A stretch of 34,118 nt of DNA from a virus. Lineage: Duplodnaviria > Caudoviricetes. Positions within the stretch are counted from its first letter, which is position 1; each line of letters opens with the position of its first letter. The translations under genes and the position numbers were made by a program. The notes under the pieces are model-generated. The model made no database searches, was not told the DNA's origin, and saw only the letters and a program-made list of their open reading frames with translations. The stretch lies in IMG/VR virus record IMGVR_UViG_3300025652_000254, positions 1-34,118 of that record. One strand, given 5' to 3'. Positions 567 to 27,300 of this stretch are shown piece after piece.

Positions 567-579
567 CTAGGAGACCGAG

Positions 580-2068: not shown

Positions 2069-3891
2069 TAACGCTCGACTTCGAGACGTATTATAGTAAA
2101 GACTTCTCTCTGACCAAGATGACAACTGAAGAATACATCCGCGACCCTCGCTTCGAGATCGTGGGTGTGGGGGTGAAGGTAAACAATGGCTACACCGAAT
2201 GGGCTTCTGGGACGCACGAAGAGCTTAAAGAATACTTTGACGAGTTTGACTGGGCTAACAGTATGGTGCTGGCTCACAACACTATGTTCGATGGCGCTAT
2301 ATTATCTTGGCTATTTGATATTCGCCCTCGGGTTTGGGTTGATACTCTTTGTATTGCCCGTGCTGTACATGGGGTGGAAGTTGGTGGAAGTCTCAAGGCG
2401 CTTGCGGAACGATACAACGTAGGTGCCAAGGGTACTGAGATACTCAACGCGCTGGACAAACGCCGCCTAGACTTTACTGATGATGAGTTAGATCGTTACG
2501 GCGACTACTGCATCAACGACGTAGAGCTTACCTATAAGCTGTTCAGCATCTTTATGAAGCAGGGGTTCCCCAAGAAAGAACTCAGGATCATTGACTGTAC
2601 GCTGCGTATGTTCATACATCCTATGCTGGAGCTAGATCAAGACTTACTGGGCCAACATCTTGAGAAGATCAAAGAACATAAAGATAAGTTGTTATGTGAT
2701 GCTAGCGTGACCGACAAGAAAGAGCTGATGAGTAACGACAAGTTTGCTGATCTGCTGCGCTCCAAAGGTGTTGAACCACCTACCAAGGTCAGCCCCACCA
2801 CGGAAAAAGAAACCTACGCATTCGCCAAGACTGATGAAGGGTTCAAAGCTCTTGCCGAACACGAGAACCCAGAAGTGCAGGCGCTAGTCGCTGCTAGGTT
2901 GGGCAACAAAAGTACGTTGGAAGAGACCCGTACTCAGCGGTTCCTTGACATATCCAATCGCGGAACTCTGCCGGTTCCTGTGCGATACTATGCGGCACAC
3001 ACTGGCAGGTGGGGTGGGGATGACAAGATCAATCTGCAAAACCTACCGAGCCGTGGGCCAAACGGTAAGATGTTAAAGAGAAGTATCATCGCTCCCGAGG
3101 ACTACATACTCATAGACTGTGACTCGTCGCAGATTGAAGCGCGAGTGTTGGCGTGGTTCGCTGGGCAGGATGACCTGACCGATGCGTTCCGTAAAAAGGA
3201 AGACGTGTACATCAAGATGGCGGCACGGATTTACGAAGTACCTGAAGATCAGATAACGAAGGATCAGCGGTTTGTAGGTAAGACTACGATACTGGGTGCC
3301 GGTTATGGCATGGGCGCTGTTAAGTTTCAGGCGCAGTTGAAGTCCTTTGGTACGGACATATCACTTGATGAAGCGCGACGGATTATCAACATATACCGTG
3401 ATACAAACTGGAAGATCAGTCATGTGTGGCGAGAAGCCCATAACATGATCTCGCACATGGCGAACGGTGCTACTTACCAGTTTGGTAAGGATGATGTGGT
3501 TGAAGTTATAGGAGACCGGGGATCTATACGTCTACCGTCTAAGCTCCTGATGCGTTATGAGGATCTCAGGGGAGAGTATAACTCACAGGGGACAGAGTAT
3601 AGTTACAAGACACGCCGAGGCCGAACGCGGATCTACGGTGGCAAGGTGATAGAGAACGTCTGCCAAGCCTTAGCACGTTGTGTGATAGGCGATCAGATGT
3701 TACTAATAAATAATAAGTACCGAGCGGTACTGACAGTTCACGACTCAGTTATCGCATGTGTACCTGAGTCTGAAGCGATACAAGCCCAGCAGTACGTCGA
3801 GAAGTGCATGAGGTACGTCCCGACATGGGCTAAGGGGTTACCACTTGAATGTGAGAGTGGTATGGCATACACATATGGAGACTGTGAGTAA
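2059..3891 (+). CDS. polA: Family A DNA polymerase with 3'-5' exonuclease domain (no 5'-3' exonuclease)
   Basis: ExoI DFETY, ExoII HNTMFD, ExoIII YCINDV, HTGRWGG, NLQNLP, motif A DSSQIEARVLA, motif B RFVGKTTILGAGYG, motif C VHDS. Confidence 0.96.
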   Translation: MDLITLDFETYYSKDFSLTKMTTEEYIRDPRFEIVGVGVKVNNGYTEWASGTHEELKEYFDEFDWANSMVLAHNTMFDGAILSWLFDIRPRVWVDTLCIARAVHGVEVGGSLKALAERYNVGAKGTEILNALDKRRLDFTDDELDRYGDYCINDVELTYKLFSIFMKQGFPKKELRIIDCTLRMFIHPMLELDQDLLGQHLEKIKEHKDKLLCDASVTDKKELMSNDKFADLLRSKGVEPPTKVSPTTEKETYAFAKTDEGFKALAEHENPEVQALVAARLGNKSTLEETRTQRFLDISNRGTLPVPVRYYAAHTGRWGGDDKINLQNLPSRGPNGKMLKRSIIAPEDYILIDCDSSQIEARVLAWFAGQDDLTDAFRKKEDVYIKMAARIYEVPEDQITKDQRFVGKTTILGAGYGMGAVKFQAQLKSFGTDISLDEARRIINIYRDTNWKISHVWREAHNMISHMANGATYQFGKDDVVEVIGDRGSIRLPSKLLMRYEDLRGEYNSQGTEYSYKTRRGRTRIYGGKVIENVCQALARCVIGDQMLLINNKYRAVLTVHDSVIACVPESEAIQAQQYVEKCMRYVPTWAKGLPLECESGMAYTYGDCE

Positions 3892-4076: not shown

Positions 4077-4744
4077 GCATAGCGCCGTGGTCGTTCAGTA
4101 AGATCAAGGCATTCCAGCAATGCCCTAAGCAGTTCTACCATGAGAAGGTGCTCAAGCAGTACCCGTTCAAGGAGTCTGAGGCTACGTTGTATGGAACAGC
4201 TTTTCACGAAGCTGCGGAAGAATATATCCGTGACGGCGGTGAACTCGACCCACGGTTTAGCTACGCTCAAGGTATGCTCGATGCGCTGAACGCCAAGAAA
4301 GGTGAGAAGCTATGCGAGATTAAGATGGGGCTAACCAAAGACTTAGAGGCGTGTAGCTTCTTTGCTGACGATGTTTGGTTCCGAGGTATTGCCGATCTTG
4401 TGATCTTGAACCGCGAGGACAACCTTGCATGGGTGATTGACTACAAGACCGGCAAGTCGGCAAGATATGCTGACAAAGGGCAGCTAGAGCTTATGGCTTT
4501 GGCTACCTTCAAGCACTACCCCGAGGTGGAGACCGTTCGGGCTGGGCTGTTGTTTGTGGTAAGTAACGACCTGATAAGGGATCGCTACACCATAGAGGAA
4601 GAGGAGAAGATGTGGACTAAGTGGCTGAGTAAATACAGCGACATGGAAACAGCTTTTGAGAACGATACGTGGAACCCCAACCCCAGCGGACTATGTAAAG
4701 CATGGTGTCCAGTGTTGGAATGTCCACACAACGGAAAGAACTGA
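4073..4744 (+). CDS. PD-(D/E)XK exonuclease, Cas4/RecB-like, probable Fe-S cluster
   Basis: WSFSKI..F..CP, GTAFHE, RGIADL, IDYKTG, QL motif, and C-terminal CKAWCPVLEC (1+3 Cys arrangement). Confidence 0.88.
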   Translation: MSIAPWSFSKIKAFQQCPKQFYHEKVLKQYPFKESEATLYGTAFHEAAEEYIRDGGELDPRFSYAQGMLDALNAKKGEKLCEIKMGLTKDLEACSFFADDVWFRGIADLVILNREDNLAWVIDYKTGKSARYADKGQLELMALATFKHYPEVETVRAGLLFVVSNDLIRDRYTIEEEEKMWTKWLSKYSDMETAFENDTWNPNPSGLCKAWCPVLECPHNGKN

Positions 4745-7504: not shown

Positions 7505-8160
7505 TGCGCCGAATCAGCATACAGGGTAATAGGTTTACTGGGTTAGACCAGCAAGCGGACAGTACGGCGATAGACGTAGTTATCGTAAACGCAGCGACAG
7601 TAGCTCGCTCGTATTACAAAGATGCCTACGACCCTAGCGCCAAACGTCTGCCGACATGCTGGTCGAACGATACCCAGAGACCCGCACCTGAAGTGCCGCC
7701 AGACCAGAGACAGAGTACGCGGTGTATTGATTGCACCAATAACGTCCGAGGTTCTGGCACTGGAGGGGGTAGGGCTTGTAGGTTTAGTCAGAGACTAGCG
7801 ATTGTTGAAGAGCAAGCACTAGACACTGTGTACCAACTACAGGTACCTGCCTCATCCATATTTGGTAAGGCCCAAGGTAGAAGCTCTATGCCTCTACAGG
7901 CTTACGCCAAATTTTTGAGTGGGCATGGAACGCCCAGTGCAGCAGTGGTGACAAAGATAAGTTTCGATGCGGGTAGCCCTGTACCAAAGCTGTTCTTTTA
8001 CCCACAAAGACCGTTGGAAGAAGAGGAACTACAGAAAGTTAGATTGATGGTGGATGACGATGACACGTTAGCAGCGATTGCTTTCGACATCGTGCCCCAC
8101 AACCGCGAGGGTTCGCCCTTCGCTGCGACTGAAGGGTTCACAATAAATAGCCTAAGTTAA
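7504..8160 (+). CDS. Cys-containing conserved phage replication protein (putative ssDNA-binding/annealing)
   Basis: GTG overlaps the upstream TAG. PTCWSND, RCIDC and GRACRF give four Cys, a possible Zn site. Function inferred from position. Confidence 0.6.
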   Translation: MRRISIQGNRFTGLDQQADSTAIDVVIVNAATVARSYYKDAYDPSAKRLPTCWSNDTQRPAPEVPPDQRQSTRCIDCTNNVRGSGTGGGRACRFSQRLAIVEEQALDTVYQLQVPASSIFGKAQGRSSMPLQAYAKFLSGHGTPSAAVVTKISFDAGSPVPKLFFYPQRPLEEEELQKVRLMVDDDDTLAAIAFDIVPHNREGSPFAATEGFTINSLS

Positions 8161-8171
8161 GGAGACCAACA

Positions 8172-9011: not shown

Positions 9012-11936
9012 ATGAATACAAGAGAATTTTTACGGTGGGTACTACCCACAGAAGGTGTGTACGTCGCTCTACAATACGGCCTAGCGTCGAACGGGGTACG
9101 GCAGACATACTTTCACTCAACAGATGAATTAGCAGAAGCCGCCGAATATCACGACAGTGAAGGGTGGGACATGTACTTTGCGATGAGTAACTTCAAAGAA
9201 GAAGGTACCCGCAAAGGTGATGACGCTAAACAGATTAAGTCATTCTTCTTAGACTTAGACGTTGGCGAAGACAAAGTAGCTAAGAACGAGGGGTTCGCTA
9301 CACAGGGGGAGGCGCTACGTAGGCTACAAGAATTTATCGTAGCCCTAGAACTACCAAAACCTCTTATCGTTAATTCTGGTCGTGGCATACACGTTTACTG
9401 GGTGCTATCTGAACCCGTTGCTGTAGAGCAGTGGAAGGTAGTGGCTGACCAGTTCAAGGCTAAGTGCAAAGAGTTCGGGCTTGAGATAGACCCCGCAGTA
9501 CCTGCTGATATAGCGCGGGTTCTTCGCATAGTGGGTACGCATAACCACAAACCTGATACCCCTGCGCCAGTAGAAGTCATAGGTAAGACTCCTGATACGG
9601 TTAACTTTGACTTCTTCGCCAGTAAGCTGGGGATGGACACGATACCAGTTCCCAAGAAGTACGTACCTGCGGAGGGGCCAGCGAGCTTACGCGATGCGAT
9701 CATTCAGAACTATAAGCACGAGTTCAGAACCATACTGCTCAAGGCACAGAACGGTAACGGGTGTGAGCAACTACGCCGCATAATAAAAGGCCAAGCCGAA
9801 ACGAGTGAACCTATGTGGAGGGCAGGTCTGTCCATCGCTAAGTTCTGCGAAGACGGTGAGAAAGCCGCGCACAAGATCTCAAACCAACACCCCGAATACA
9901 CGCCAGAGCTAACGCTAAAGAAGCTGGATCTAATTAAGGGGCCGTACCGCTGCACAACATTTGACGAGAATGAAGGCGGTATCTGCACGGAATGCCCTCA
10001 CTGGGGTAAGATCAGTTCACCGATTGTGCTAGGGCGCAAGGTGGCTGAAGCAGAAGCCAATGAAGACGGTACGTATGTAAATGATCTTCAAGATCAGCAA
10101 CTACAAACAGTTGAAGGTACGCTACTTGAAAAGTTGGAAAACCAAGATCTTTCTACACAACACGTTATACCAGTCTACCCGCGCCCATACTTCCGTGGTC
10201 AGAACGGCGGTGTCTATGTCAGGAACATAAGCCAAGACGGGGAAGTTGATGAGCACGTCATCTACCATAACGACATTTACATTACGCAGCGTTTGTTAGA
10301 TATAGAGGACGGGGAGTCTGTAGTTTGTAGGATACACCTGCCACAAGACGGTGTACGTGAGTTTACGATGCCTCTTACGGCGGTCACTTCACGAGAAGAA
10401 TTTAGAAAAAACATGGCGATGCAAGGTGTTGCCATCCCTCAACTAAACGATTTGATGCAATATATGATTACTTGGGTAAACGAATTACAAGCAACCTCTA
10501 CAGCAGCCACGGCACGTCGCCAGTTCGGTTGGGTAGACGAGAACATGGACGCTTTTGTTGTAGGAAACAAAGAAATACGCGCAGACCGTATTGACCACAA
10601 CCCACCGTCCACACCGACAGCCGCACTAATCCCATACCTCAAACCGAAAGGTACGCTGGAGGCGTGGAAAAAGATGGCTAATTTCTACAACACGCGGCCC
10701 GAACTTGTGATGCACCAGTACGTTGTAAGCACAGCGTTTGGCTCTCCGTTAATGGCCTTCTTGCCTCAGAAGGCTTGTGCGTTACACATACACAGCCCAC
10801 TTAGTGGGTGCGGCAAAACAGCAGCTATACGGGTAGCGGGTTCGGTGTGGGGTGCTGAGAAAGGCATGATGATAACCGCAAAGGATACCGACGCGATAAA
10901 GTTTAATCGTTCGGAGGTGCTGCACAACCTACCGTTTTACATAGACGAATTGACCAATGAGAAAAGTGAGCAGCTAAGTGACTTAGCGTATCAAATATCC
11001 TCTGGGGAACAGCGTGGGCGTATGGCTGGTGGGGCTAACCTTGAACGTGCTCGTGGCGAGCCGTGGCACCTCTCATGTGTAACTACAGGCAACGCCAGTG
11101 TCATTGAACGTATTGCAGCGGAAAAGCAAGCGCCGAAAGCAGAGGCGCAGAGGATAATGGAATGGAGGGCGCAGCGGGTATTCTCCAGCACGGAGGAGAA
11201 GAAAGGTACGGATGCGTTCGATAGGTCTATCGAAGAAAACTATGGGCACGCTGGGGTTATTTATATCCAGTGGGTCATGCAGAACCTAGAAGACGTTAAG
11301 AAGCTCGTACTTGGGTTTCAGCGTAAGATTGACGAGGCGGCAGGGCTTACATCAGAAAACCGTTTCTGGTCTGCCGGAGCTGCTACCACACTAGCTGGGG
11401 CGTACATCGCTAACAAGCTGGAGCTAATCGACTACGACATGAAGGGCTTATTTAAGTGGACTGTTAACCTACTTAAACTAAACCTGCAATCGGTTAACGA
11501 TATGGGGTCATCAGTAGAACAAACACTTAACGACTACCTGACTGAAAACTATAACAACATACTGGTAATCAAGAGCACGGACGATCTGCGTAGTGGTTCC
11601 GGTAATGGGTTGGACAGCATCGTCATACCCGATGCACTACCGAAGGGTAGGCTAGTAGCGCGGTTCGAGACGGACACGAAGAAGGCGTACTTAGTCCCGA
11701 GGTTCTTGAAGGCTTGGTGCGCCACACATCAGATTAACTACGGCGCATTCACGAGCGACCTGATTAACAAGTTAGGTGGTAAGCGTGGATCTATGCGGTT
11801 AGGTAAAGGCACGCACATAGGGTCGGCCATGCCTGCATATAGAGTGCTGATAGTTGACTGCAAGGTGTTTAATGCAACTAACGAAGATGGAGAAAGTTTA
11901 GATGATGACCCTCAAGACGCACGACTTGAACCCTGA
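9012..11936 (+). CDS. AEP/RepB'-type primase fused to a DUF927 and P-loop helicase region
   Basis: FLDLD, NSGRGIHVYW, RVLRIVGTHN; Cys cluster (RC..F, CTECPH); Walker A SGCGKT and Walker B FYIDE. ATG at 9012. Confidence 0.88.
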   Translation: MNTREFLRWVLPTEGVYVALQYGLASNGVRQTYFHSTDELAEAAEYHDSEGWDMYFAMSNFKEEGTRKGDDAKQIKSFFLDLDVGEDKVAKNEGFATQGEALRRLQEFIVALELPKPLIVNSGRGIHVYWVLSEPVAVEQWKVVADQFKAKCKEFGLEIDPAVPADIARVLRIVGTHNHKPDTPAPVEVIGKTPDTVNFDFFASKLGMDTIPVPKKYVPAEGPASLRDAIIQNYKHEFRTILLKAQNGNGCEQLRRIIKGQAETSEPMWRAGLSIAKFCEDGEKAAHKISNQHPEYTPELTLKKLDLIKGPYRCTTFDENEGGICTECPHWGKISSPIVLGRKVAEAEANEDGTYVNDLQDQQLQTVEGTLLEKLENQDLSTQHVIPVYPRPYFRGQNGGVYVRNISQDGEVDEHVIYHNDIYITQRLLDIEDGESVVCRIHLPQDGVREFTMPLTAVTSREEFRKNMAMQGVAIPQLNDLMQYMITWVNELQATSTAATARRQFGWVDENMDAFVVGNKEIRADRIDHNPPSTPTAALIPYLKPKGTLEAWKKMANFYNTRPELVMHQYVVSTAFGSPLMAFLPQKACALHIHSPLSGCGKTAAIRVAGSVWGAEKGMMITAKDTDAIKFNRSEVLHNLPFYIDELTNEKSEQLSDLAYQISSGEQRGRMAGGANLERARGEPWHLSCVTTGNASVIERIAAEKQAPKAEAQRIMEWRAQRVFSSTEEKKGTDAFDRSIEENYGHAGVIYIQWVMQNLEDVKKLVLGFQRKIDEAAGLTSENRFWSAGAATTLAGAYIANKLELIDYDMKGLFKWTVNLLKLNLQSVNDMGSSVEQTLNDYLTENYNNILVIKSTDDLRSGSGNGLDSIVIPDALPKGRLVARFETDTKKAYLVPRFLKAWCATHQINYGAFTSDLINKLGGKRGSMRLGKGTHIGSAMPAYRVLIVDCKVFNATNEDGESLDDDPQDARLEP

Positions 11937-12126
11937 CGGGGTACGTATCGTGGTGGACTGGGGTGCTATGGTGGTAGGGAGTTCGATATTTGTGCCGTGC
12001 ATCGACACGGACAAGGCACTACAGCAGATTAAACGCATCTGCGTGGACGAGATGGAGTGGGATATACGAGCCAAGGGCGTCCTAGAAGGTCGTTTTTTAG
12101 GGGTTCGCGTCTGGAGATTGGTGTGA
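11902..12126 (+). CDS. Small phage protein, paralog 4 of the 'VGDS...RVWR' family
   Basis: Motifs WGAMVVGSSIFVP and LGVRVWRLV. GGAG upstream. Confidence 0.7.
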   Translation: MMTLKTHDLNPDGVRIVVDWGAMVVGSSIFVPCIDTDKALQQIKRICVDEMEWDIRAKGVLEGRFLGVRVWRLV

Positions 12127-12132
12127 TACGAT
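12124..12132 (+). promoter_or_regulatory. Extended -10 promoter candidate
   Basis: TG-A-TACGAT resembles TGnTATAAT. The -35 region is poor (TTCGCG). Confidence 0.4.
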
Positions 12133-12138
12133 CCGCCC

Positions 12139-12229
12139 TGATAAGGTCGTCCGGTCTCCTGCTGAAAGGTCTTATCGCCTTCCTACCCCCTTACCGTAAC
12201 CACCCCTTCTTGCGGTAAGGGGGTTTTTT
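12139..12229 (+). ncRNA. Candidate small RNA with exposed anti-Shine-Dalgarno loop
   Basis: Stem GATAAGGTC/GGTCTTATC with CCGGTCTCCT in the loop, a CCTTCCT linker, then an intrinsic terminator. Lies downstream of an extended -10. Confidence 0.45.
12185..12229 (+). terminator. Rho-independent terminator at the convergence of the two gene blocks
   Basis: 15-bp stem ACCCCCTTACCGTAA/TTGCGGTAAGGGGGT followed by a T-run. Confidence 0.88.
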
Positions 12230-15200
12230 ACAAGAACCCTTCACCCGAATCCACCGTACGCTTCATGTATGGCGATAGCGTTGTACCGTTGTGCATCTCC
12301 GCAGAACGGGTCTCGTGCCCACGTATTGACCTATCAATAGTGTCACCTGTTATACGTTTCTGGCGATCTCGGCGCACGGCACTGGACTTGTTGAACTCTC
12401 GCATAGATCGCCGTGCATCACGCATACCTTCTCTGTCACCGAATCTCTTGGCAACGTAGTAACGTCTCAGCAGGTCACGGCGTTTAGCACTCGCAGCTAT
12501 GTCTAGGCGTTTAGCTGTAGATGTCTCGTCCGCTTGTCTGGTGTAATCGACGGGCGGAAACCCTAGTAGCTGCGTAGCCAAATCACCGGCTGTGAGATCA
12601 TCGTAGATAGGATCACCGCGCCGAGTCAGAATGCCCTCATCCCTCGGGTACCTGATAACAGCTTTATAAGCATTACGTACAGCGCCCGGCATTAGGTCTT
12701 CTATACCACGCTCTATCTCGCCTTCACGTAGTTTGTCTATGCCATCTCTACCTCGTGAGTAGATGCTCCATGCAGGGCCACCAAACAGGTGAGCAATCTC
12801 TTCTTCTGGCGATGGATCACTGTTGAATCTGTCGGCTTCAAATAGCAGGTCGGTCAGCTTAACGCGCTGCGATACATCAACCCCAGTTATTTCAGACAGA
12901 GCGCCCTTGAATAGCACTTCACTGTCTAGGTACTGCCGTAGCATGGTGTCGGTGTCTTCTTCGTAGTCTTCTCTAAACATGTCAATAAGCATGGAGACTG
13001 CACCGTACAACGGTAGACCCTGTACCCCAGCGAAGAACAGAGCAGATAAATGTACACCGGCAAGCTGTTTCAGAGCCTCATTACGTAGCTCTCTGCTCTT
13101 AGCGTCATTGCCCGGAAAAAAGTTCTCTATAGCTTGTCTACCAGACTTAAACATCGTGTAGTACATCTGTATGCCGTACGCTTTATACATCAGCGCAATA
13201 CGACCTAAACTCTCACGGGCGTACCGTGGGCCAGTTTCTAGTGTGGCACCACCGTTGATTAGCTGCGTCTCACGTACAGCTTCTTCTGCGGCTTTCTTCT
13301 TGTCACCATCAAACTTCTTTAGTGCGAGTTTATACGCTGCCACCATCGTAACTTGACGATTCATTACTTCTGCTTCATGGAACATAAGAGCCGAAGCGTT
13401 TGTCACCGCGTCCATCTTAGACATCTTACGCCCCGCCTGACTCGTGCTGAGTGTGTCGGCAATGAACGACGAGTTAAGCTGCCCCCGCCTAGAAGCAAGC
13501 TCCATCAACGGTAGAAGGTCTTTCAATTCCTTTGTTTGCGCTGCATCGAGGTCTAGGTCTTTACGTACTTCGTAAGTGACTCGGCCATCTTTGTCGCGGG
13601 AGAACGTATAGTAGTTATCCAGCGATGGTAATGCCTTGTCTTTGAGGGCTTCTCTCGCTGCGTTGAGGTCACCTTTACGTAGCGCTTCTCTTACAGACCG
13701 TGGCGTTCTTGCGTCCCCGACTAAAGTAGCTATGTCCTTGTTCATTGGAGAACCCATAAACAACTTAGTAGCACCGCTTAGAGCGGTTCGTGTGGCTCCG
13801 AACCCATACTTACCTGCCAGCATCGGGTATGCGAACAACGGTATCTGCGACAAGTTTACCAGCGCAGACGAGGCGTTGAAGCCGATAGTCCACATGAATG
13901 CCATACGGTTTGCGTTCTTAGCGAAACTGTCCAGTGGCGGATTGACGGCAAATCTAGCGCGGTCTTTTACCTCTTCGATTTCTGGGCTGTTCGCATCTGC
14001 CATTTTAGGGTTGGCTTCAAGCATCTCTTGTACGGCGTTGTCGATTAGCCGTGAGTTCTTAATGCGCTCTACCTGCCGTGCCAGATCAAAAGCCTTCGTA
14101 CGTGCCGCTTCCACAGCATCTACATCATAACCTTCAGTGCCCTTACGTCGAAGCAGTGACTTAGCGAAAGAAGACTCTGGCAGGTACTCAATAAACAAAC
14201 GTGTTATCTGTTCCTGAACCTCTGGGTCTACTTTGTTCACCTTCATAATGCCCAGTATGCTGGAGACAAAAGAACCAGAGGGCGCGTCCTCGTAGGAGGC
14301 TTTGTCACTAGGGCTGAACGTCGATACTCCGTAACCTTCTGCTTCGTAGGCTTCCGCTGCCCTGAACCGTTCCGCAGCGTTCTCGTATGCAAACACGGCA
14401 GAGTCCGCGCCTTCCTTGGGGTTCTTCACAGACAGGAAGTACGTGCCGGTACGAGTCAGCGGGAAGTATGGCTCCAGCTTAGTCGCCTCTAACATCTTAG
14501 CGTATAGACCGTTCTTGAGGTTGGTCTTCGCTTGTTCTGCTATGGGCAGTCCGTCAATACGATTTTGCAGCGTGTCATTAAGTTGGTCGTACTGATCTTT
14601 ATATAGCTTACGCAAAGCGGCGTAGTTCTTCCTACCCTCGGCACCAACCATCTTGCTGTTGTAGACCGCCCGTAGTTCTTTGTAGCGGTCTATTTTTAGC
14701 TGCTTAGTGCCGTCTACGGGCTGGTTGCCGTACCGTTTTTGTGCTTGCTGTGGCGTTAGCTCTGGATCTACTTGGTCAACGGTACTGTCGTAGATCAAGT
14801 TATTCCACGCCTTAATCGTTTCTCCAGACTGTTTAGCAGCCCACTCTCGTATAGGTTGTAGGTTGTTTCTGACCGCTTGCTCTGCGGTAGTTAGGCCACC
14901 ACGTTGGTTTTCTATAGCAGCGAAAACCTTATTAACACCGACTACACCTGCCCTTTCAAGCTCTACTTCGACGGCGTTGTTAGGTAAGAGACCAAGTATT
15001 TTGCGTTTTAGTCCGGTGTTTTTCTGCCCTGCTGTGAGTGCACCGTACTCGCCAACTATTCTTTCTTTTGCACGCTCTATCGGCCCTTTAGGTAGGGCGT
15101 CCTTGAGTCCTTCCTCTACTCTACGTACGCCAGCAGGGTCGGTCATAGATGCTAAGAGAGGAGCACCACGGTGCTTGGCGGCAGGTGCCAGTATGTCTTC

Positions 15201-18017
15201 AATTAACTGTTGGGCTTCACGCTGTGCAGTACCACGTTCTTTGCCCAGCCCGAGGAAGTTAGATACCACGCGGATAAATTCTTGCCAGACACTAAGCGGC
15301 CTACCGTCTGGGTTGATTCGAGCTAGCTCACCTTGGAAGGTGGGGTTAGTAAAGGCTTCAGCGACAAACTCTGCTACGTTCTTAGACCCATAAGAGTTAC
15401 GTAGGTACTCTTTGCTAGCCTCATGCAGCTTTATCAGCTTCTTAGTAGTCGGGTGTGACGGGTTCTTCAGAGTGCTAATCGTTGCAGCGTGCGCCATCTC
15501 GTGCAGTAGGACATACACATCTGTGTAGTCTTTATTCAGTACGATTGTGTTGTCTGCGGTTATGAACCGTCCGTCAACCTGTTTACCGTCTACTGTACCC
15601 AACTGGCTTGGGGGCACGGTCATTATCTTGGTGTCACCAGTGAGTTTAGCCAGACGGCCAGCTACTCGCTTGATGAACTTATCGTCTGACTTGTTAGATA
15701 GCTCTAGTAAGGCTCGACGTAGTTCGTTGTTACGTACCGCACGTTTTACAGTGTCAGGCAGTGAAGCATCCAACACCTCGGTGTAGTCTCTTGGAGGTGC
15801 GTTGAGGACTTGTTCGGATGCGACACGCATAGCGTCTGCTTTACTGAGACCTTCTTCTTTTACGAGCCTGTCTCTTTCTGCACGACGTTCAGCTAAAAGA
15901 CTTTGCTTGTCGGCAGTTTTTTCCTCTGGGGCACGTAGATCTACGTCCGCCGTAGGCTCTTCTACAGTAGGTTCTGCCGGGGCGGGTGTAGGTTCCTTCG
16001 TCAAAACCTCTTTTACGGTAGCTGGTGTGGCTGCGGCAGTGGCGGACATAGCCCGCTCTGCACGGCGTTGGGCGTCCACAGTCTCTTGAGGTATGACTTG
16101 CGTATCTACATCGGCAAGCTGTTCGTTGGCTTTTATACCTTCTTCAGTAACTTTCTGTAGCTTCTTCTCAGCACGAGCCAACTTACGTTGGTTAGCCTGC
16201 GTTGGTTTTACTGTTGCAGCTTCTTCGGCTTTAGCTACTTCAGTTCGGGCTGCGTTAGCCTTGGCTACTGCCGAAGTAACCTTTCGGGCTAGTGCACCAC
16301 GCTGTTTTCTCGTTCCAGAAACAGGTCGTCCAACGCCTCTTCCAGCATCTCCCACTGGTTCTCCGACAAGTGCAGCAGGTTCCACGGTATCCGCACGTCT
16401 TGTAGGGACTCCCACGCCTCGTAGATCAGCTTCATCGCCTGTTCTACTTCTTGCTGCGACAGGTTCTCTTTTGCGCGGGGTAGGTAGATCACGTTGCTCA
16501 CTAGGTACTCCTTCTAGCAATCGGGTAACGCCACGTCGAACCTTTTGAGATTTTAGACGGTTAGCTTCGTTAGTTAGCTCAACCCGGACTTCTGGGTCAT
16601 CTAAGTCTTTACCTATAACACGTCTGCGTATAGCAGCATTCGGCGCAAACCCAGCGGTAGTGAGGTCTTCTTCTGTGACAGGACGCGATTCGGGTGTTGG
16701 TTCTGCTTCTGGCGCTACTGCGGCTCCTTCTGCTACAGCAAGTTCAGTCGGAAATAGGTCAGGCTGTTCTCGTTGAGCAATCTCAGCACGTTCTCTACCT
16801 GTCCGCGCTTCGTCAGATACTGGCTCTTCAGTGATCTGTTGTTCTCTATCACGTAAGTTGGTTCGGTCTAAGGCTTCTTGTCTACCTAACACATCGCCTT
16901 CAGGCGTTACAGCTAACGTCTCACCAGCAATAGTTTCACCTTCTGGTGCAGGTAGACCTCGCAACTGTGGCCCAACACGTTCTGGCTCTAGCCCCGGCAG
17001 TGATATTTGGTCAGGGCTTACTTCGGCTGTACGTTCTTCCTCAAACAGCCTGTCTCGTTCTTCCTGATCTATGTCGTCTATGACTTCATCTATCTCAGGA
17101 GTACGCTCCTCTGCGTCGTCAAACAGTTCAAGTTGCCCTTCGGCTTCAGCTTCTTCAACAGCATCACCAATGGTCTTACCGGCTCTGCGTGGGGCGAACA
17201 GGTCAACAAGACCCTGTAAAATAGCACCGGCTCCAGCGCCTAATGCAGCTTCTTCTGCGGTACCGCCAAACGTCTCAGCAGCAGCGTTGTATTCTTGCTC
17301 GTTAAGATTTTGCAGTATGTTGGATGCAGCTTCCTGTGCACCCTCAAACCCACCTGTCACACCCGCGCTGTAGATACGTTCGCCAATGGTTTCGACCTTC
17401 TCAGGCGGTATCTTGTCAACTAGCTTGTTTAGCGTAGGTAGATCAGCGAACTTAACTACTTTTGCAACGGGGAGTATGTCTAGCAAACCGATTACTGTGC
17501 CCCGTACGGTGGCTTCACCACGTTTTTGCTCTGTAGTATCAGCGGCACGAGCACGCTCACTCGCCTCACCAGCACCGGCAGCACCGGCAGCTAACGCACC
17601 AAGACCCAAAGCCGCAGCACCGGGGGCACCAGCTATACCAGCGGCAACAGGTATAGAAGCAAGGCCAGCAACGGAACCAAGCGCGGAGCTTAGTTTGTAG
17701 GTAATAGATTCTGAGTCACCGCCTTCGGGACGGAAAGACTCCGCAATAGACTGAATACGCTCGCGTGCAGCTAGTTCGCTTTCTTCTTCCAGTGGCGCAG
17801 CGAGACCGAGTGCAGCCATCTCACCTACACCGACAACACCCGCACCGAATCCAGAGGTAATGTCCTCGAATATGCCGGTTTCTCGTGGTGCGCTGGTAGG
17901 GAGAGGGGTAGTACGCCCTACTAAAACACCCCTTAGCGCGTCTACAGCTTCTGTATCCCCAGCAGCTAGAGCGTTGCGGTACGCCCGATAAACTTTCTCT
18001 CTTGGTACTACTGGCAT
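12228..18017 (-). CDS. Large polyvalent internal virion/ejection protein with zincin-like metallopeptidase motif and PLxRFG/LPD-like C-terminal region
   Basis: 1929 aa. Gly/Ala hydrophobic N-terminal segments, LLHEMAH followed by EFVAEAF, YFPLTRTG. Last gene of the structural block. Confidence 0.75.
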   Translation of the reverse strand: MPVVPREKVYRAYRNALAAGDTEAVDALRGVLVGRTTPLPTSAPRETGIFEDITSGFGAGVVGVGEMAALGLAAPLEEESELAARERIQSIAESFRPEGGDSESITYKLSSALGSVAGLASIPVAAGIAGAPGAAALGLGALAAGAAGAGEASERARAADTTEQKRGEATVRGTVIGLLDILPVAKVVKFADLPTLNKLVDKIPPEKVETIGERIYSAGVTGGFEGAQEAASNILQNLNEQEYNAAAETFGGTAEEAALGAGAGAILQGLVDLFAPRRAGKTIGDAVEEAEAEGQLELFDDAEERTPEIDEVIDDIDQEERDRLFEEERTAEVSPDQISLPGLEPERVGPQLRGLPAPEGETIAGETLAVTPEGDVLGRQEALDRTNLRDREQQITEEPVSDEARTGRERAEIAQREQPDLFPTELAVAEGAAVAPEAEPTPESRPVTEEDLTTAGFAPNAAIRRRVIGKDLDDPEVRVELTNEANRLKSQKVRRGVTRLLEGVPSEQRDLPTPRKREPVAARSRTGDEADLRGVGVPTRRADTVEPAALVGEPVGDAGRGVGRPVSGTRKQRGALARKVTSAVAKANAARTEVAKAEEAATVKPTQANQRKLARAEKKLQKVTEEGIKANEQLADVDTQVIPQETVDAQRRAERAMSATAAATPATVKEVLTKEPTPAPAEPTVEEPTADVDLRAPEEKTADKQSLLAERRAERDRLVKEEGLSKADAMRVASEQVLNAPPRDYTEVLDASLPDTVKRAVRNNELRRALLELSNKSDDKFIKRVAGRLAKLTGDTKIMTVPPSQLGTVDGKQVDGRFITADNTIVLNKDYTDVYVLLHEMAHAATISTLKNPSHPTTKKLIKLHEASKEYLRNSYGSKNVAEFVAEAFTNPTFQGELARINPDGRPLSVWQEFIRVVSNFLGLGKERGTAQREAQQLIEDILAPAAKHRGAPLLASMTDPAGVRRVEEGLKDALPKGPIERAKERIVGEYGALTAGQKNTGLKRKILGLLPNNAVEVELERAGVVGVNKVFAAIENQRGGLTTAEQAVRNNLQPIREWAAKQSGETIKAWNNLIYDSTVDQVDPELTPQQAQKRYGNQPVDGTKQLKIDRYKELRAVYNSKMVGAEGRKNYAALRKLYKDQYDQLNDTLQNRIDGLPIAEQAKTNLKNGLYAKMLEATKLEPYFPLTRTGTYFLSVKNPKEGADSAVFAYENAAERFRAAEAYEAEGYGVSTFSPSDKASYEDAPSGSFVSSILGIMKVNKVDPEVQEQITRLFIEYLPESSFAKSLLRRKGTEGYDVDAVEAARTKAFDLARQVERIKNSRLIDNAVQEMLEANPKMADANSPEIEEVKDRARFAVNPPLDSFAKNANRMAFMWTIGFNASSALVNLSQIPLFAYPMLAGKYGFGATRTALSGATKLFMGSPMNKDIATLVGDARTPRSVREALRKGDLNAAREALKDKALPSLDNYYTFSRDKDGRVTYEVRKDLDLDAAQTKELKDLLPLMELASRRGQLNSSFIADTLSTSQAGRKMSKMDAVTNASALMFHEAEVMNRQVTMVAAYKLALKKFDGDKKKAAEEAVRETQLINGGATLETGPRYARESLGRIALMYKAYGIQMYYTMFKSGRQAIENFFPGNDAKSRELRNEALKQLAGVHLSALFFAGVQGLPLYGAVSMLIDMFREDYEEDTDTMLRQYLDSEVLFKGALSEITGVDVSQRVKLTDLLFEADRFNSDPSPEEEIAHLFGGPAWSIYSRGRDGIDKLREGEIERGIEDLMPGAVRNAYKAVIRYPRDEGILTRRGDPIYDDLTAGDLATQLLGFPPVDYTRQADETSTAKRLDIAASAKRRDLLRRYYVAKRFGDREGMRDARRSMREFNKSSAVRRDRQKRITGDTIDRSIRGHETRSAEMHNGTTLSPYMKRTVDSGEGFL
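16289..16501 (-). CDS. Nested same-strand, alternative-frame 70-aa acidic protein
   Basis: SD AGAAGGAG (16508-16515) 6 nt before a GTG. Amphipathic helical sequence. The host frame here is low-complexity R/G/P/A. Confidence 0.6.
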   Translation of the reverse strand: MSNVIYLPRAKENLSQQEVEQAMKLIYEAWESLQDVRIPWNLLHLSENQWEMLEEALDDLFLERENSVVH

Positions 18018-20712: not shown

Positions 20713-21381
20713 TTATGCAGGTAGCATCTTCTGAGGTTTGATTTGCCTACCCTGTTTCGGGTTACCCGTGCGTTCTTTACGTACTCTGGTCATCATTTGG
20801 TGTAGCTGATTTGCACCGGCATCGGAGTTACCGTTACCTAGATGGCTCACCACATCCGCAGGTATGACAAACTCCCCATCGCTAAGGCGTGCTTCTTGTC
20901 TACCATCAATAGTAGCTGGAATCTTATCAGCCATACCATCCGTAATACCACCTAAGTAGTACCCTTTGTTCATGCCAATAGCACCGCCAGCAGCCATTCC
21001 AGCTAGCCCTTGCGCTTGTGTTTGGGCTTTTTGCCGTGCTTGCTCTACTGTCATAGACTGACGTTCAGGACGGTCAGCGTACTGAACATCACTGAAGTAT
21101 CTTCTACCAGCAGATCCGGGCCTACGGTTAGGGTCTGCCTGCATAGGTACGCGCTCTCGCACGGCCTCATACTCTGGAATGCTTCCTTGGTAGCCAACTA
21201 CAGGCGTTTTAGTGTCCATGATTCCAGTCTTAGTGGCTAAAGCTCCAAGCCCTGCGGTTCCAATAAGACTACCAACATCAGAACGAAAAAAATCACCAAC
21301 GCCCCCTAAAAACGTGTTTTCATTTCCAGTATCGGTAAAAGCACCGGACACGCCAGATGTAAGATCAGTCCACCAGCTCAT
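20713..21381 (-). CDS. Conserved virion-associated protein
   Basis: 222 aa. C-terminal DGMADKIPA...ARLSDGEFVIPADVVSHLGNG motif is recognisable from environmental podovirus proteins. Confidence 0.7.
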   Translation of the reverse strand: MSWWTDLTSGVSGAFTDTGNENTFLGGVGDFFRSDVGSLIGTAGLGALATKTGIMDTKTPVVGYQGSIPEYEAVRERVPMQADPNRRPGSAGRRYFSDVQYADRPERQSMTVEQARQKAQTQAQGLAGMAAGGAIGMNKGYYLGGITDGMADKIPATIDGRQEARLSDGEFVIPADVVSHLGNGNSDAGANQLHQMMTRVRKERTGNPKQGRQIKPQKMLPA

Positions 21382-24300
21382 TAGCTTTCTCCAATAATCC
21401 GTAATAGTTCGTCGTTTGCATCAATTATACCTCCACGTTTACGTCCAAACGGCAGTCTAGGCCGTGTAGTCGGTTGAACTGGCCCTCGTTCGATTGTGCC
21501 GTACGGTGTAGGGAACATAGACGCTCTTTGTTGCGGCCCGAATATACTACCAAAATCATACAGATAGTCGATCTGTGCCAAGGGAGATTGATCTACTGTA
21601 ACTTGTTGTCCTGTTATGTCTGCGGCACCCATGATCTGGCCTAACAGATCCCTACGGCGAGCCTGCTCCCCTTCTTGTGCGATTTGAGTCTGTATTGCCT
21701 GCTGCGACTGCATTTGCTGCTGCATCTGCTGCTGTTGCTGTAGCTCTTGCTGCTGTTGCAGTTCCTGTTGCGTCTGAATCTGTTGCTGTTGTTGCTGCTC
21801 CATCTGACGCTGTAGCGCTTGTTGCGTCTGCTGCTGTGCGGCGTATAGGCCCGTAGGAGCGAACATACTGTCAAGGTCAAACAGTACATCTTGCCCTGTT
21901 CTAGCTTGTTGCAGGAGGTCTAGGTCAGCTTGGTCTACTACACCGTCACCTGTTACGTCATAGGCTAGCTGTTCTTGTGTGTACGTAGCAGGGTCGTTGA
22001 TCGCTTCTTGCTGTGCGATAAGGTCAGCAACAAAGTCAATATCCGCATCAGTCACCTCAGAAGCAGGCTTACCTACAAGCTCCGCTACCGCTTCAATTTC
22101 GGCAGTCAGTGCACCCTCAGCGCCGCTAATTGCACGCAACAAATCAGCTTCAGTTTCACCGATTGCAGCGCGTAGGGACTCTTCAGACTCTCCGATACGT
22201 GTAAGTAAAGTTTCTTCGGTAACGCCAAGCTCGCTAGCAAGGTCGGATATAGAGGTACGCAGTGCCGTATCTCTGTCGGCACCTGCTTGTTCAGCTTCGT
22301 CAATCTTCGTCAGAAGGGTACGTGTTGTGGCGTCAACATCCCCAGACACATCTTCGATAGCTTTAGCTAATGCTTCATCCCGAGAAAGCCCTGCTGCCTC
22401 GTACTCAGCCATCTTGTCGAGGACGTTTGTTTCAAGGCCAGCTACTTCTCCAGATAGGCTTGTCTGTAAATCAGCTAACTCGCCCTTGAAGTCTTCTCGT
22501 ACAGAAAGCTCAGAGTCCGCTATGGCATCTAGTAAGGTTTCTTTTGTTGTACCTAGATCACTAGCAAGCTCGTCAACAGTCTTGGCTAGTGCTTCATCAC
22601 GGGACATCCCCGCTGCTTCGTATTCTGCTACTTTATTAAGTAGGGTCGTCTCAAGGTTAGCTACATCCCCAGACACGTCTTCGATAGCTTTAGTTAGTGC
22701 TTCATCACGAGACAACCCTGCTGCTTCGTATTCCGCTATCTTATCAAGGAGGTTTGTTTCAAGGCTGGCTACGTCACCAGATACATCCGCAACAGCTCTG
22801 GATAGTGCTTCATCACGCGACAACCCTGCTGCTTCGTATTCAGCTACTTTGTTAAGTAGATTTGTCTCAAGGCCAGCTACGTCTCCAGATACATCTTCGA
22901 TAGCTAAAGCTAATGCCTCATCACGGGAAAGCCCCGCTGCTTCGTATTCGGCTATCTTCTCAAGAAGGTTTGTTTCGAGGTTAGCTACATCCCCAGATAA
23001 GCTCGCCTGTAAGTTAGCTAACTCGGTTCCAAAATCTTCTCGTATGGCAAGTTCAGAACCCGCTATCCTGTCTAACAGGCTCTGCTCTGTTGTACCTAAC
23101 TCTGCGGATACATCTGCAACGGACTGCGATAGTGCCTCATCCCGAGAAAGTCCCGCCGCCTCGTACCCCGCTATCTTCTCAAGAAGGTTTGCTTCAAGGT
23201 TAGCTACGTCTCCAGCTAGACTTGCCTGTAAATTGTCTATCTCATCCTTGAACTCTTCCCGTATGGCAGTGTCGGAATTCGCTATTCTGTCTAACAGGTT
23301 CTGCTCTGTTGTACCTAGTTCTCCAGATACATCTGCAATAGACCGCGCTAACGCTTCATCGCGGGAAAGTCCTGCACCCTCATACTCGGCCATCTTCTCA
23401 AGGAGGCTTGTCTCAAGGTTAGATACATCTTCAGATAGAGTTGTTCGTAAGGCAGATAACTCGTTTGTGAAGTCTTCCCGTATGGCGAGATCAGAGTCCG
23501 TTATCCTATCTAGCAGGTTCTGTTCTGTTGTACCTAACTCTCCAGATACATCTTCGATGGCCTTAGCTAGTGCTTCATCACGAGAGAGTCCTGCGTTCTC
23601 ATACTCAGCCATCTTTCCAAGGAGGTTCGCCTCGATGTTGGACATACCTTCGGATAGGTCTGCCTGCAAACTTTCTAGTTCACCCTTGAAGTCTTCTCGT
23701 ATGGCAAGATCGGAGTCCGTTATTCTGTCTAACAGGTTTTGCTCTGTTGTACCTAGTTCTCCAGATACGTCCTCAATAGCTTTGGCTAACGCTTCATCAC
23801 GAGACAGCCCTGCGTTCTCGTACTCGGCCATTTTCCCAAGGAGGTTCGCCTCAAGGTTGGACATTTCCTCAGATAGATTTGTCTTTAGGGTAGTCAACTC
23901 ATTTCTGAAGTCTTCCCGTACGGCAAGTGCAGAGTCCTCTACAACGTCTAACAGGTTTTGCTCTGTTGTGCCTAGCTCTCCCGACACAGCTTCGATAGCT
24001 TGGGCCAGTGCTTCGTCCCGAGAGAGTCCTGCTGCTTCGTATTCAGCTACTCTATCAAGGATGCTTGCCTCAAGATTCGACATATCTCCGAGTAAACTTG
24101 CCTTTAGGCCCGTCAGCTCACCCTTGAAGTCTTCTCGTATAGCAAGTTCGGAATTTGCTATGGTGATTAACAGGTTTTCTTTTGTTGTACCGAGATCACC
24201 GGCAAGGTCGTCAATAGCCTGCGATAATGCCTCATCCCGAGAAAGCCCTGCATTTTCATACTCATTTACTTTATCGAGTATGTTTGCCTCAAGATTCGAC

Positions 24301-27300
24301 ATGTCCTCGGACAAACTTGTCTCTAGGGTAGTTAGCTCATCCCTGAAGTCTTCTCGTATGGCAAGCTCAGAGTCCGCTATAGTGTCCAGCAGGTTTTCTT
24401 CTGTTGTACCTAGCTCTGCGGATACATCTGCAATGGACTGTGCTAACGCTTCATCACGAGAAAGCCCTGTTGCCTCATACTCTGCTATCTTCTCAAGAAG
24501 GTTTGTCTCAAGGCTGGACATATCCCCAACCAAACTTGCCTTCAGATCGACTAACTCGTTCCTGAAATCCTCTCGTATGGTAAGTTCAGAGTTCGCTATA
24601 ACGTCTATTAGGGATTCTTTTGTCGTACCTAGATCACCAGCAAGCTCATCAATAGCCTGCGCTAACGCTTCATCACGAGAAAGCCCTGCTGCTTCGTATT
24701 CAGCCACTTTAGCGAGAATGCTTGTCTCAAGGTTCGACATATCCCCAAGCAAACTTGTCTTCAGATTAGCTAATTCGCCTTTGAAGTCTTCTCGTATGGT
24801 GAGGTTAGAGTTTGTTATAACGTCTAACAGCTCTGCCTTTGTTGTACCTAGCTCTGTGGACACCTCTTCGATGGCCCTAGCCAGTGCTTCATCCCGAGAA
24901 AGCCCTTCTGCTTGGTACTGATCCATCTTGCCAAGGAAACTTGTTTCGAGGGTAAGCATGTCTTGAGACACATCTTCAATAGCTTTGGCTAGTGCTTCAT
25001 CCCGAGAAAGCCCTTCCGCTTGGTACTGAGCCATCTTGCCAAGGATACTTGTCTCAAGATTAGCCATATCCTCAGATACAATCGTCTCTAGGACAGCTAG
25101 TTCGTCCCTAAAGTCTGTTCGTAAGGAAGACTCAGAGTCCCCTATGATGTCTAGCAGAGTTTGTGTTGTTGTGCCCAATTGACCTGCAAGCTCGCTAATA
25201 GCCTGCGCCAATGCTTCATCACGAGTCTTACCCTCTCCTTGTAGCTGATCTATACGGTCATTAAGCTGCTGCTCAGACTCTGTTAGCTGGTCGGACAACG
25301 CAGCTATTTGATCGTCTACAGGATCGACTACAGGATCGACTACAGGATCGACTACAGGATCGACTACAGGATCGACTACAGGATCGACTACAGGATCGAC
25401 TACAGGATCGACTACAGGATCAACTACAGGATCGACTACAGGATCGACTACAGGATCGTCTACAGGATCTGGCGTTGGGTTAAGTAAGCTACCGTCATCG
25501 TCAATGCCAGAATCCGTACGGGCAGTAGAGTCTGGGTTGATTGATTCAATCTGGTCTAGCAGACTGTCTAATTGCAAAGGCGTTGTGTTTGGATTACCAA
25601 GCAGCCCGTCTAGCTGAAGCATTAACATGTTTTCAGAGTATTCAGTCACATTGTCTGAAGCGTACTTTTCTGACTTACCTACAAACTCAGCCAAGTCTTC
25701 TTGTGTAGGTGTATACCCAATGTCAGTAAAGTAATCCCTAGCTTCTCGGTTAGTGACATACATCGGGTCGAAAACATCAGAACGTAAGCTGTTAAGCGCA
25801 GCCTCGGCTTGCCCAGACTCGGTTTGGCGTACGTACTGAGCGACCTGTTCGTTAGTTAATGTCAGACCTTCAAGCGCTGCGACATCTATGGCTTCTTGTG
25901 CGTCGATATAGCTGCGGTCTACTAAGTCTGCAACGCTAGCAGCTAACCTATCTTCAGCGATGTCGCCGGTAAAACCAAGTATGTCCGCTTCAGTGGGGGC
26001 GTAATCAGGGTTTTCAATTTGGAACGTATCTTTGGATTCGGTATATGTGGTGTAATCCGCGTCAAACGCATCATTTAATAGGGTGGTTTGTAGACCGCCG
26101 TATTCATCACTGGCTATACCAAATTCTGCTAAGGCCGCTTTAGCCTGTGCATCATTAATCAGCCCCCTCTTAGCGCCTTCTATTGTGGCATTTATACCTG
26201 CATGAGTAGAGCGTACAGCCCCAGCCAAAGCATCTCGTGCGCCATCAACACCTAACAAAGCCGATGTAACTGCGGTGCCGCTAATAAGACCTCCCGCACC
26301 GGCAGAAGCTATTGCAGCGCCCCAGTCGCGGTTTGGATCTGTAGAAGTTAGAGTAGCCTCTAACGCTGTCCCAGTTAGTGCTTCTTCTCCGTATTCAAAA
26401 ATCCCTTCTTTACCCGCAGTTTTTGCAGCCCGCAGCCCTGTAACGAGAGCGTCTCCAGCATTGACACGATCACCTAGCTCTTTAGCCAAAGCCTCCATTT
26501 TTGGGTTTAAGGTGGTTTTTTTACCCCCGAGTAAGAGTTTGTCTAGTGCCTCGCCACCCAAACCAAAAGATGCAAGCGACAGCACCGTAGCGGTACCACC
26601 GCTAATCATTGCAGCATCATGGGCAAACTTGTGGATCTCATCCATTTGCCCCGGAAATAGACCATTCTGGTCAACTAAATTGCCGATAGGTATACCGGCG
26701 GATTGCATAAGAGCTACTGTGGCTTCGTTGTTTTCTCGTAACTGCTTTAGTTTCGCATCAAACGCCTCGTCATAAGCCCCGTCAGCGCTACCCCCAAAAG
26801 CCTCGCTAGCGTCGGTAGCAGCGGCGGTAGTCAAACCAGCCCTCGTACCAATCTGAGTTGCTGCAACTTTAGCAGAAGCGGATACCGCGCCTTTCCCTGC
26901 AATTTTTGCTGCGGATAACGCAGCGCCCTTCGCTATTACTCCTGCACCACCACCAACAAGTAAAGGGCCGATTTCTTGGAAAAGCTCTACCCCTGCAAGT
27001 TCAGCCAGCATGATAGTTGGGTCGTCAGCAAGTGCGTCTGTCCATGCTTGAGTAGTGCCCCAGAACCCTTCTGCTTCTTGTATTGTCCCCCACATGTCTT
27101 TAACGCGGGCTTGGTATCCTTCGGTATTCGCAGAATCGCCAAGTTCAAGAAGTTTATTTACGTATTGACCAAGTTCTAAGTCATCTGGGCGTGCCCCAAA
27201 TAGGTAAGTAAGCCCCAACATGGCTTTGGTAAAACCCGCACCCGCACGGATCATGTTTGCAGTGGTGTTAATTGCACCCGCTTCCAAATTAGCGGCTAGC

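Follow-up and report, generated by a model that had tools for sequence, protein, structure and literature searches.

A predicted phage small RNA carries an anti-Shine-Dalgarno seed that co-varies with ribosome-binding sites of early genes in the same phage

The element between the convergent gene blocks

The window analysed here is the whole 34,118-nt stretch of IMGVR_UViG_3300025652_000254, a 55%-complete virus record of the Caudoviricetes. Its early block on the + strand encodes PolA, a PD-(D/E)XK exonuclease, an SNF2 helicase, a weakly Gam-like protein (gene 6843), an HTH protein, a Gp2.5-like SSB, a DUF927 primase/helicase and a 74-aa ORF; the virion/lysis block on the − strand is convergent with it. 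No close cultured phage was found, primase matches being below 30% and the 74-aa ORF having no match among cultured phages. Many of the relatives bear marine contig names, and the three GTDB matches are short binned contigs that do not name the host. In the region between the blocks, 12124-12229, an extended −10 box precedes a 9-bp hairpin, which presents GGUCUCCU, and a terminator of 15 bp; all coordinates given for it in the initial annotation were borne out on recheck. The features are as follows.

11902..12126, + strand: conserved 74-aa ORF, function unassigned; last gene of the early block and marker for finding relatives
12124..12132, + strand: extended −10 promoter TG-A-TACGAT, whose TGA is also the stop codon of the 74-aa ORF
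12140..12229, + strand: predicted ~90-nt sRNA, its presumed 5′ end 7-8 nt past the −10 box
12140..12176, + strand: 5′ hairpin SL1 (stem 12140-12148/12168-12176), 9 bp comprising 7 Watson-Crick and 2 G·U pairs
12151..12160, + strand: seed CCGGUCUCCU with core GGUCUCC, anti-Shine-Dalgarno (anti-SD) plus SD-to-start spacer; complements 569-577 and 8160-8167
12177..12184, + strand: pyrimidine-rich single-stranded linker GCCTTCCT, the main seed site in distant relatives and variable in close ones
12185..12229, + strand: intrinsic terminator with a 15-bp stem (hairpin 12185-12224) and a U run behind it; adjoins the stop (12228) of the convergent 1929-aa gene
569..577, + strand: predicted target 1, RBS AGGAGACCG of gene 580 (HTH/DUF3310-like, the family being a lead)
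8160..8167, + strand: predicted target 2, RBS AGGAGACC of the Gp2.5-like ssb gene (8172)

The loop of SL1 contains CCGGTCTCCT (12151-12160). In the minimum free energy structure a weak 4-bp helix also closes within the loop, while CUCCU stays open. The fold z-score of the element is −3.56 on the + strand and −1.34 on the − strand. AGGAGACC occurs three times on the + strand of the window (569, 3510, 8160) and once on the − strand, in the element itself. Rfam returned no match to the element, the ArcZ match (E=0.8) lying outside it, and a 53-codon ORF crossing the element was set aside, being open with a start in just 23 of 142 loci. The seed DNA GGTCTC (12153-12158) is identical to the BsaI site, which matters for cloning only. 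Of four sequencing runs considered as expression evidence, two RNA runs contributed a small share; all four consisted of assembled contigs and thus bear nothing on expression.

Two large − strand genes show features of their own. The 3′ end of the gene for the 1929-aa LPD39/DarB-like protein (12228-18017) varies among close relatives right to the terminator, so that the predicted sRNA adjoins a variable module. In the gene for the 2991-aa virion-side protein (21381-30356), a 219-nt repeat composed of 108-nt subunits recurs about 11 times (22200-25480), and a 12-nt tandem array lies at 25310-25470.

Conservation of the transcription unit

The primase and the 74-aa ORF served as queries for collecting relatives. 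They match about 870 viral stretches, of which each scan contributed 80 at most. By a rule that asked for a promoter plus a terminator, the unit was present in 185 of the 206 loci with sequence past the 74-aa ORF, a redundant set that includes copies of the window genome. Among the 21 misses, 17 look by eye like variants or truncations and four (L123-L126, one lineage) have a terminator only; the covariance model matched the missed loci on which it was tried (L043, L099, L128, L212). Locus boundaries were corrected by hand for about 20, and 200 loci were carried into the later analyses.

The TG of the extended −10 box is part of the stop codon of the 74-aa ORF in 142 loci. TAnnnT was found in 23 of 23 clade representatives of this stop-overlapping class, a class chosen by the same pattern. 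In 36 further loci (13 distinct sequences) repeats or an inserted gene have detached the promoter from the stop, yet it is kept, with TGGACA upstream in 34 of the 36. A search for the RNA pattern alone gave 85 distinct matches, of which the 42 beside the ORF, some of them contigs already in the set, all had a −10 box at the right distance and the 43 elsewhere had none. At the level of sequence, the element thus has its own promoter and its own intrinsic terminator.

This arrangement bears on whether the unit is transcribed separately. Lying on the early strand directly past the last early ORF, and with its promoter TG doubling as a stop codon in the 142 loci, it could be the 3′ UTR of a polycistronic early mRNA and pair, either in cis or once processed, with the RBSs upstream. 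We consider this unlikely. The promoter outlives its detachment, once behind an inserted gene of ~780 nt, and retains the upstream TGGACA. Moreover, a read-through transcript of the window folds the seed onto the last codons of the ORF, which masks the seed, although this pairing is not conserved.

In an alignment of 15 close sequences, 98.1% of the stem cells were paired and nine pairs had changed on both sides, a level reached by none of 500 shuffles. For SL1 alone 95.6% of cells were paired, with two pairs changed on both sides; for the terminator 100% were paired over 12 counted pairs, seven of which showed compensatory changes. The 5-bp stem of 16 distant sequences was conserved in sequence with weak co-variation (25/500 shuffles). 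A covariance model built from distant-type relatives only was run on 27 sources and in 20 of them found a single match, located where expected; the window is one of these, with 12122-12230 (E=0.003) as the sole match. It found none in L088, L123-L126 and two cultured phages whose primase is related, Pseudomonas phage Rollin and Rhizobium RHph_TM3_14A. Taken together, this element is very probably a real, conserved and so far uncatalogued phage sRNA gene.

Several lineages deviate from the common form. L123-L126, records of 51-60% completeness, have lost promoter, hairpin and seed and kept the terminator, and GGAGAAC or GGAGACC was found at none of their 11 called early starts. The clade of L039, L140, L146, L149 and L212 has no TCTCC core; its loop carries CCTCCTTC, and a same-strand gene with its own AGGAG RBS follows. 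An additional hairpin lies between seed and terminator in L130, L135, L136, L144 and L216. In L009, L010 and L019 an extra gene of ~780 nt separates the stop of the 74-aa ORF from the sRNA promoter, and in L073-L082, L113, L115 and L026 a ~10-nt repeat (GCGTTTATGG / GAACTTTATG type) occurs two to five times upstream of the detached promoter. These repeats are possibly protein-binding sites controlling the RNA.

Predicted targets and co-variation with the seed

With helix energies computed for contiguous helices from Turner stacking values, and opening costs counted, the RBS of gene 580 ranked best of the 29 start regions of the window (−10.6 kcal/mol), the ssb RBS second (−8.2 kcal/mol) and the late gene start 30873 third (−7.9 kcal/mol). 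The latter, a 9-nt match that the initial annotation had overlooked, was taken as chance: just four weak homologs were found, one with a similar start region and a different RNA. Two starts only are good targets in the window. In relatives, the RBS of gene 580 reads GGAGACC in 11 of 15 cases and can still pair in the other four, the variants GGAGACT and GGAGGCC being G·U-compatible with a + strand RNA. The ssb RBS reads GGAGACC in 95 of 98 close-type loci, compensated GGAGATC in two and GGAGACA in one.

By themselves, the RBS matches of the window are marginal. Among 3000 dinucleotide shuffles of the 46-nt body, 233 had two start regions with matches of at least 8 nt and 115 had matches of at least 9 and at least 8 nt (4-8% of shuffles); when only the flanks of an unchanged TCTCC core were varied, 52 of the 1024 combinations did as well. 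The support comes from the relatives.

Other complementarities fared less well. A match inside polA (3510..3519, + strand), which the initial annotation had counted among the sites, encodes codons G-D-R, and AGGAGACCG is kept there in 11 of 46 aligned relatives; we reject it as a target. The match GGAGACTG of gene 3891 coincides with the last polA codons Y-G-D-C-E and is uninformative, and GGAGACC within the exonuclease gene at 4528 is variable. The pairing proposed between the linker CCTTCC and the RBS of gene 6843 gained no advantage for the own over foreign RNAs in the close group (p=0.11), and for both gene 6843 and the helicase gene the pre-terminator body failed to co-vary in that group; the terminator loop was scored against these two genes in the window only.

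Across the relatives, seed and RBS change together. Close relatives carry GGUCUCC in the loop and distant ones mostly GUUCUCC in the linker. The seed/RBS pairs are GGUCUCC/GGAGACC, GUUCUCC/GGAGAAC, GAUCUCC/GGAGAUC and AUUCUCC/GGAGAAU. Counting one start per family and clade, GGTCTCC seeds accompany the RBS GGAGACC ten times and GGAGAAC never, GTTCTCC seeds accompany GGAGAAC 22 times and GGAGACC never, and GATCTCC seeds accompany GGAGATC in two of four cases. The seed is conserved, complementary to target RBSs and single-stranded, apart from its partial inclusion in the weak 4-bp helix of the window.

For ten families, starts were called with a generic anti-SD and pairing with the own RNA was compared with pairing with foreign RNAs by clade-level permutation at 31 and 18 clades. 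The own RNA paired better for ssb (p=0.00005/0.00025), the Gam-like gene 6843 (p=0.0001/0.00005), the helicase (p=0.00005/0.00005) and the primase (p=0.0002/0.0025), all at p≤0.0025 and passing Bonferroni correction for ten families, with p-values that are optimistic because clades share ancestry. PolA and gene 7504 were borderline, and HTH, exonuclease and gene 4702 showed no own-RNA advantage under the clade permutation. The advantage persisted among distant clades alone (p 0.004-0.00005). Inside the close group there was none (p 0.09-0.81), as its members show almost no variation of the seed.

In a quickly computed primase tree with 36 rows, in which the seed-finding rule had mis-picked the seed labels of L022 and L147, paired seed/RBS switches fall on separate branches. 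One is that of the GGTCTCC clade as a whole. Another distinguishes L071 (GATCTCC/GGAGATC) from its sister L107 (GGTCTCC/GGAGACC). Further ones are the L094/L206 clade, a separate switch to ATTCTCC/GGAGAAT with pairing of up to 16 bp, and L128, with CTCTCTTTCTCT/AGAGAAGGAGAG. Likewise, the L019 seed GGTCTCTCC matches its own gene-580 RBS GGAGAGAC. In one subclade a second seed, in the loop, fits the primase start (L152 with 13 bp, L096, L136; L141 with one bulge). Compensatory change of seed and target is accordingly found, with exceptions: L132/L136/L152, where the ssb RBS reads GGAGACT, and L120 have a GTTCTCC seed that this RBS does not match, and the TCTCC core is absent in L039, L140, L141, L224 and L227.

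Predicted pairing was concentrated on early genes. Start regions at or below −16 kcal/mol numbered 62 of 347 among early and 2 of 77 among late genes (p=0.001), and GGAGA is absent from 53 of 54 late starts. Five near-complete genomes, three of them scanned over their first 60 kb only, contain 47 perfect 7-mer sites; 15 of these fall in start regions, and each of the 15 is on the early strand. Among the targets are the gene-580 ortholog and DUF2201, DUF3150, DUF3310/HTH, SspB-like and ATPase genes; in one of the genomes, G005, the top-scoring start is that of a late gene. The predicted RNA would spare the late genes. An SspB-like protein is encoded in the early block of one relative (L251:7461-7961).

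Proposed action, alternatives and known systems

We place a probability of roughly 0.7 on the reading that the element is a trans-acting anti-SD sRNA that damps or represses the phage's own early replication genes by pairing with their RBSs. Unit and seed behave in related phages as the initial annotation's proposal of a ~90-nt anti-SD RNA called for, the unit being conserved and the seed co-varying with the own RBSs; that core stands, whereas two of its four proposed pairing sites fail. The established action of anti-SD sRNAs suggests how such an RNA would work. Host sigma-70 RNA polymerase would make it as a separate ~90-nt transcript, whose open CUCCU would nucleate on the Shine-Dalgarno sequence. 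Pairing would then run on into the SD-to-start spacer (7-16 bp) and thereby provide specificity, binding of the 30S subunit would be blocked and a subset of early and replication mRNAs would go untranslated. In the window, ssb and gene 580 would be damped and late genes spared. More loosely, build-up of the RNA might serve as a timer or as negative feedback on ssb and other early proteins.

The dormancy or immunity role also entertained in the initial annotation drew no support from a search for integrases. No tyrosine integrase was found in five relatives of 91-100% completeness, which favours a role in the lytic cycle over prophage immunity and is still compatible with a carrier state.

A different set of targets is conceivable. 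UCUCC is the complement of a common SD variant, and the RNA might mainly silence host mRNAs with AGGAGA-type RBSs, the likeness of the phage RBSs reflecting a shared host style. Host anti-SD sRNAs such as AbcR1/2 do have large regulons, as described in the part of PMC8844928 available. A host style should mark late genes too, yet GGAGA is depleted there, and single-base switches of the seed are mirrored in the phage ssb RBS; both make this explanation distinctly unlikely.

Very unlikely, in our view, is that the motif is a protein-binding site, with co-variation following the specificity of the protein. It would then be an operator in the DNA or, on the minus strand, an RNA decoy with the same sequence as the RBS motif, which would titrate a repressor of translation. 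The minus strand does present AGGAGACC along with four GGA motifs, and it could be covered by late transcripts. A G·U versus A·C asymmetry, intended to reveal the pairing strand, was 31:25 and did not differ from foreign controls (Fisher p=1.0; also p=0.32), as a protein site would allow. However, the + strand is the one indicated by the promoter and the U run, its fold is the better of the two, and the gene-580 variants are G·U-compatible with a + strand RNA. In addition, clades differ in the length and the sequence of their matches, which extend to 16 bp and include the second, unrelated primase seed. That the region is a terminator only and the RBS matches are chance is hardly credible: the single-genome probability of 4-8% and the bare terminator of L123-L126 would fit, but promoter, 5′ hairpin and seed are conserved with repeated compensatory changes, and co-variation largely refutes it.

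For the preferred reading, in which a trans-acting RNA is directed at early RBSs of its own phage, compensatory changes that recur across hundreds of records provide evolutionary evidence that one seed regulates a set of the phage's own replication genes. They suggest that the timing of phage genes has a post-transcriptional layer. The seed/RBS pairs found in nature are ready allele-swap tests and possibly orthogonal repressor parts. More speculatively, virulent phages that depend on host RNA polymerase might use a self-encoded RNA mimicking 16S rRNA as a general early-phase timer, with a clade-specific address in the SD-to-start spacers of early genes, so that one small RNA shuts a regulon. 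If this were true, the address, which differs between clades, could exclude superinfecting kin too.

Phage sRNAs of known function are few. According to the portion of PMC12197685 available, they include the cis-antisense RNAs sar, OOP and aQ, the host-directed PreS, VpdS and DicF, and 24B_1. They share with our element phage riboregulation of development or replication; in that text, however, each of them is the cis-antisense RNA of a single gene, is directed at host mRNAs or Hfq, or has a single phage target proposed for it, and none of the sRNAs it covers has a seed that evolves together with several early RBSs of the same phage. The available part of PMC10914365 lists ncRNA candidates of virulent Pseudomonas phages and gives no functions. 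Within the openly accessible literature searched, no phage sRNA was described as co-varying with its own early RBSs.

Two known systems come closest. As far as the accessible text of PMC12197685 describes it, the c4 antisense RNA of phages P1/P7 likewise pairs through loop sequences near the RBS of the phage's own mRNA and blocks translation, with a specificity that differs between related phages. Whereas c4 targets an antirepressor message and acts in prophage immunity, the element described here has several predicted replication-gene targets and its seed is the anti-SD itself. The Rfam C4 antisense RNA model did not match it, and no antirepressor is among the 30 annotated ORFs of the 55%-complete window, where ssb and gene 580 are the best targets. 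The Rfam models AbcR/alpha-r15 and ar14 (cuckoo) gave no match either, the seed being GGUCUCCU and not of the CUCCUCCC type. AbcR1/AbcR2 and NfeR1 of Sinorhizobium meliloti, in the available part of PMC8844928, resemble the element in having an anti-SD seed in a 5′ hairpin loop and a second one between stem-loops, a multi-target regulon and flanking bases that add specificity. These RNAs are chromosomal, 114-121 nt long, and use CUCCUCCC/UUCCCCUC seeds on transport and metabolic mRNAs; the element presented here, in contrast, is phage-encoded, has a (G/A)NUCUCC seed and finds its predicted targets in the same genome. By analogy, it is expected to function like c4 or AbcR1/2 while belonging to neither family.
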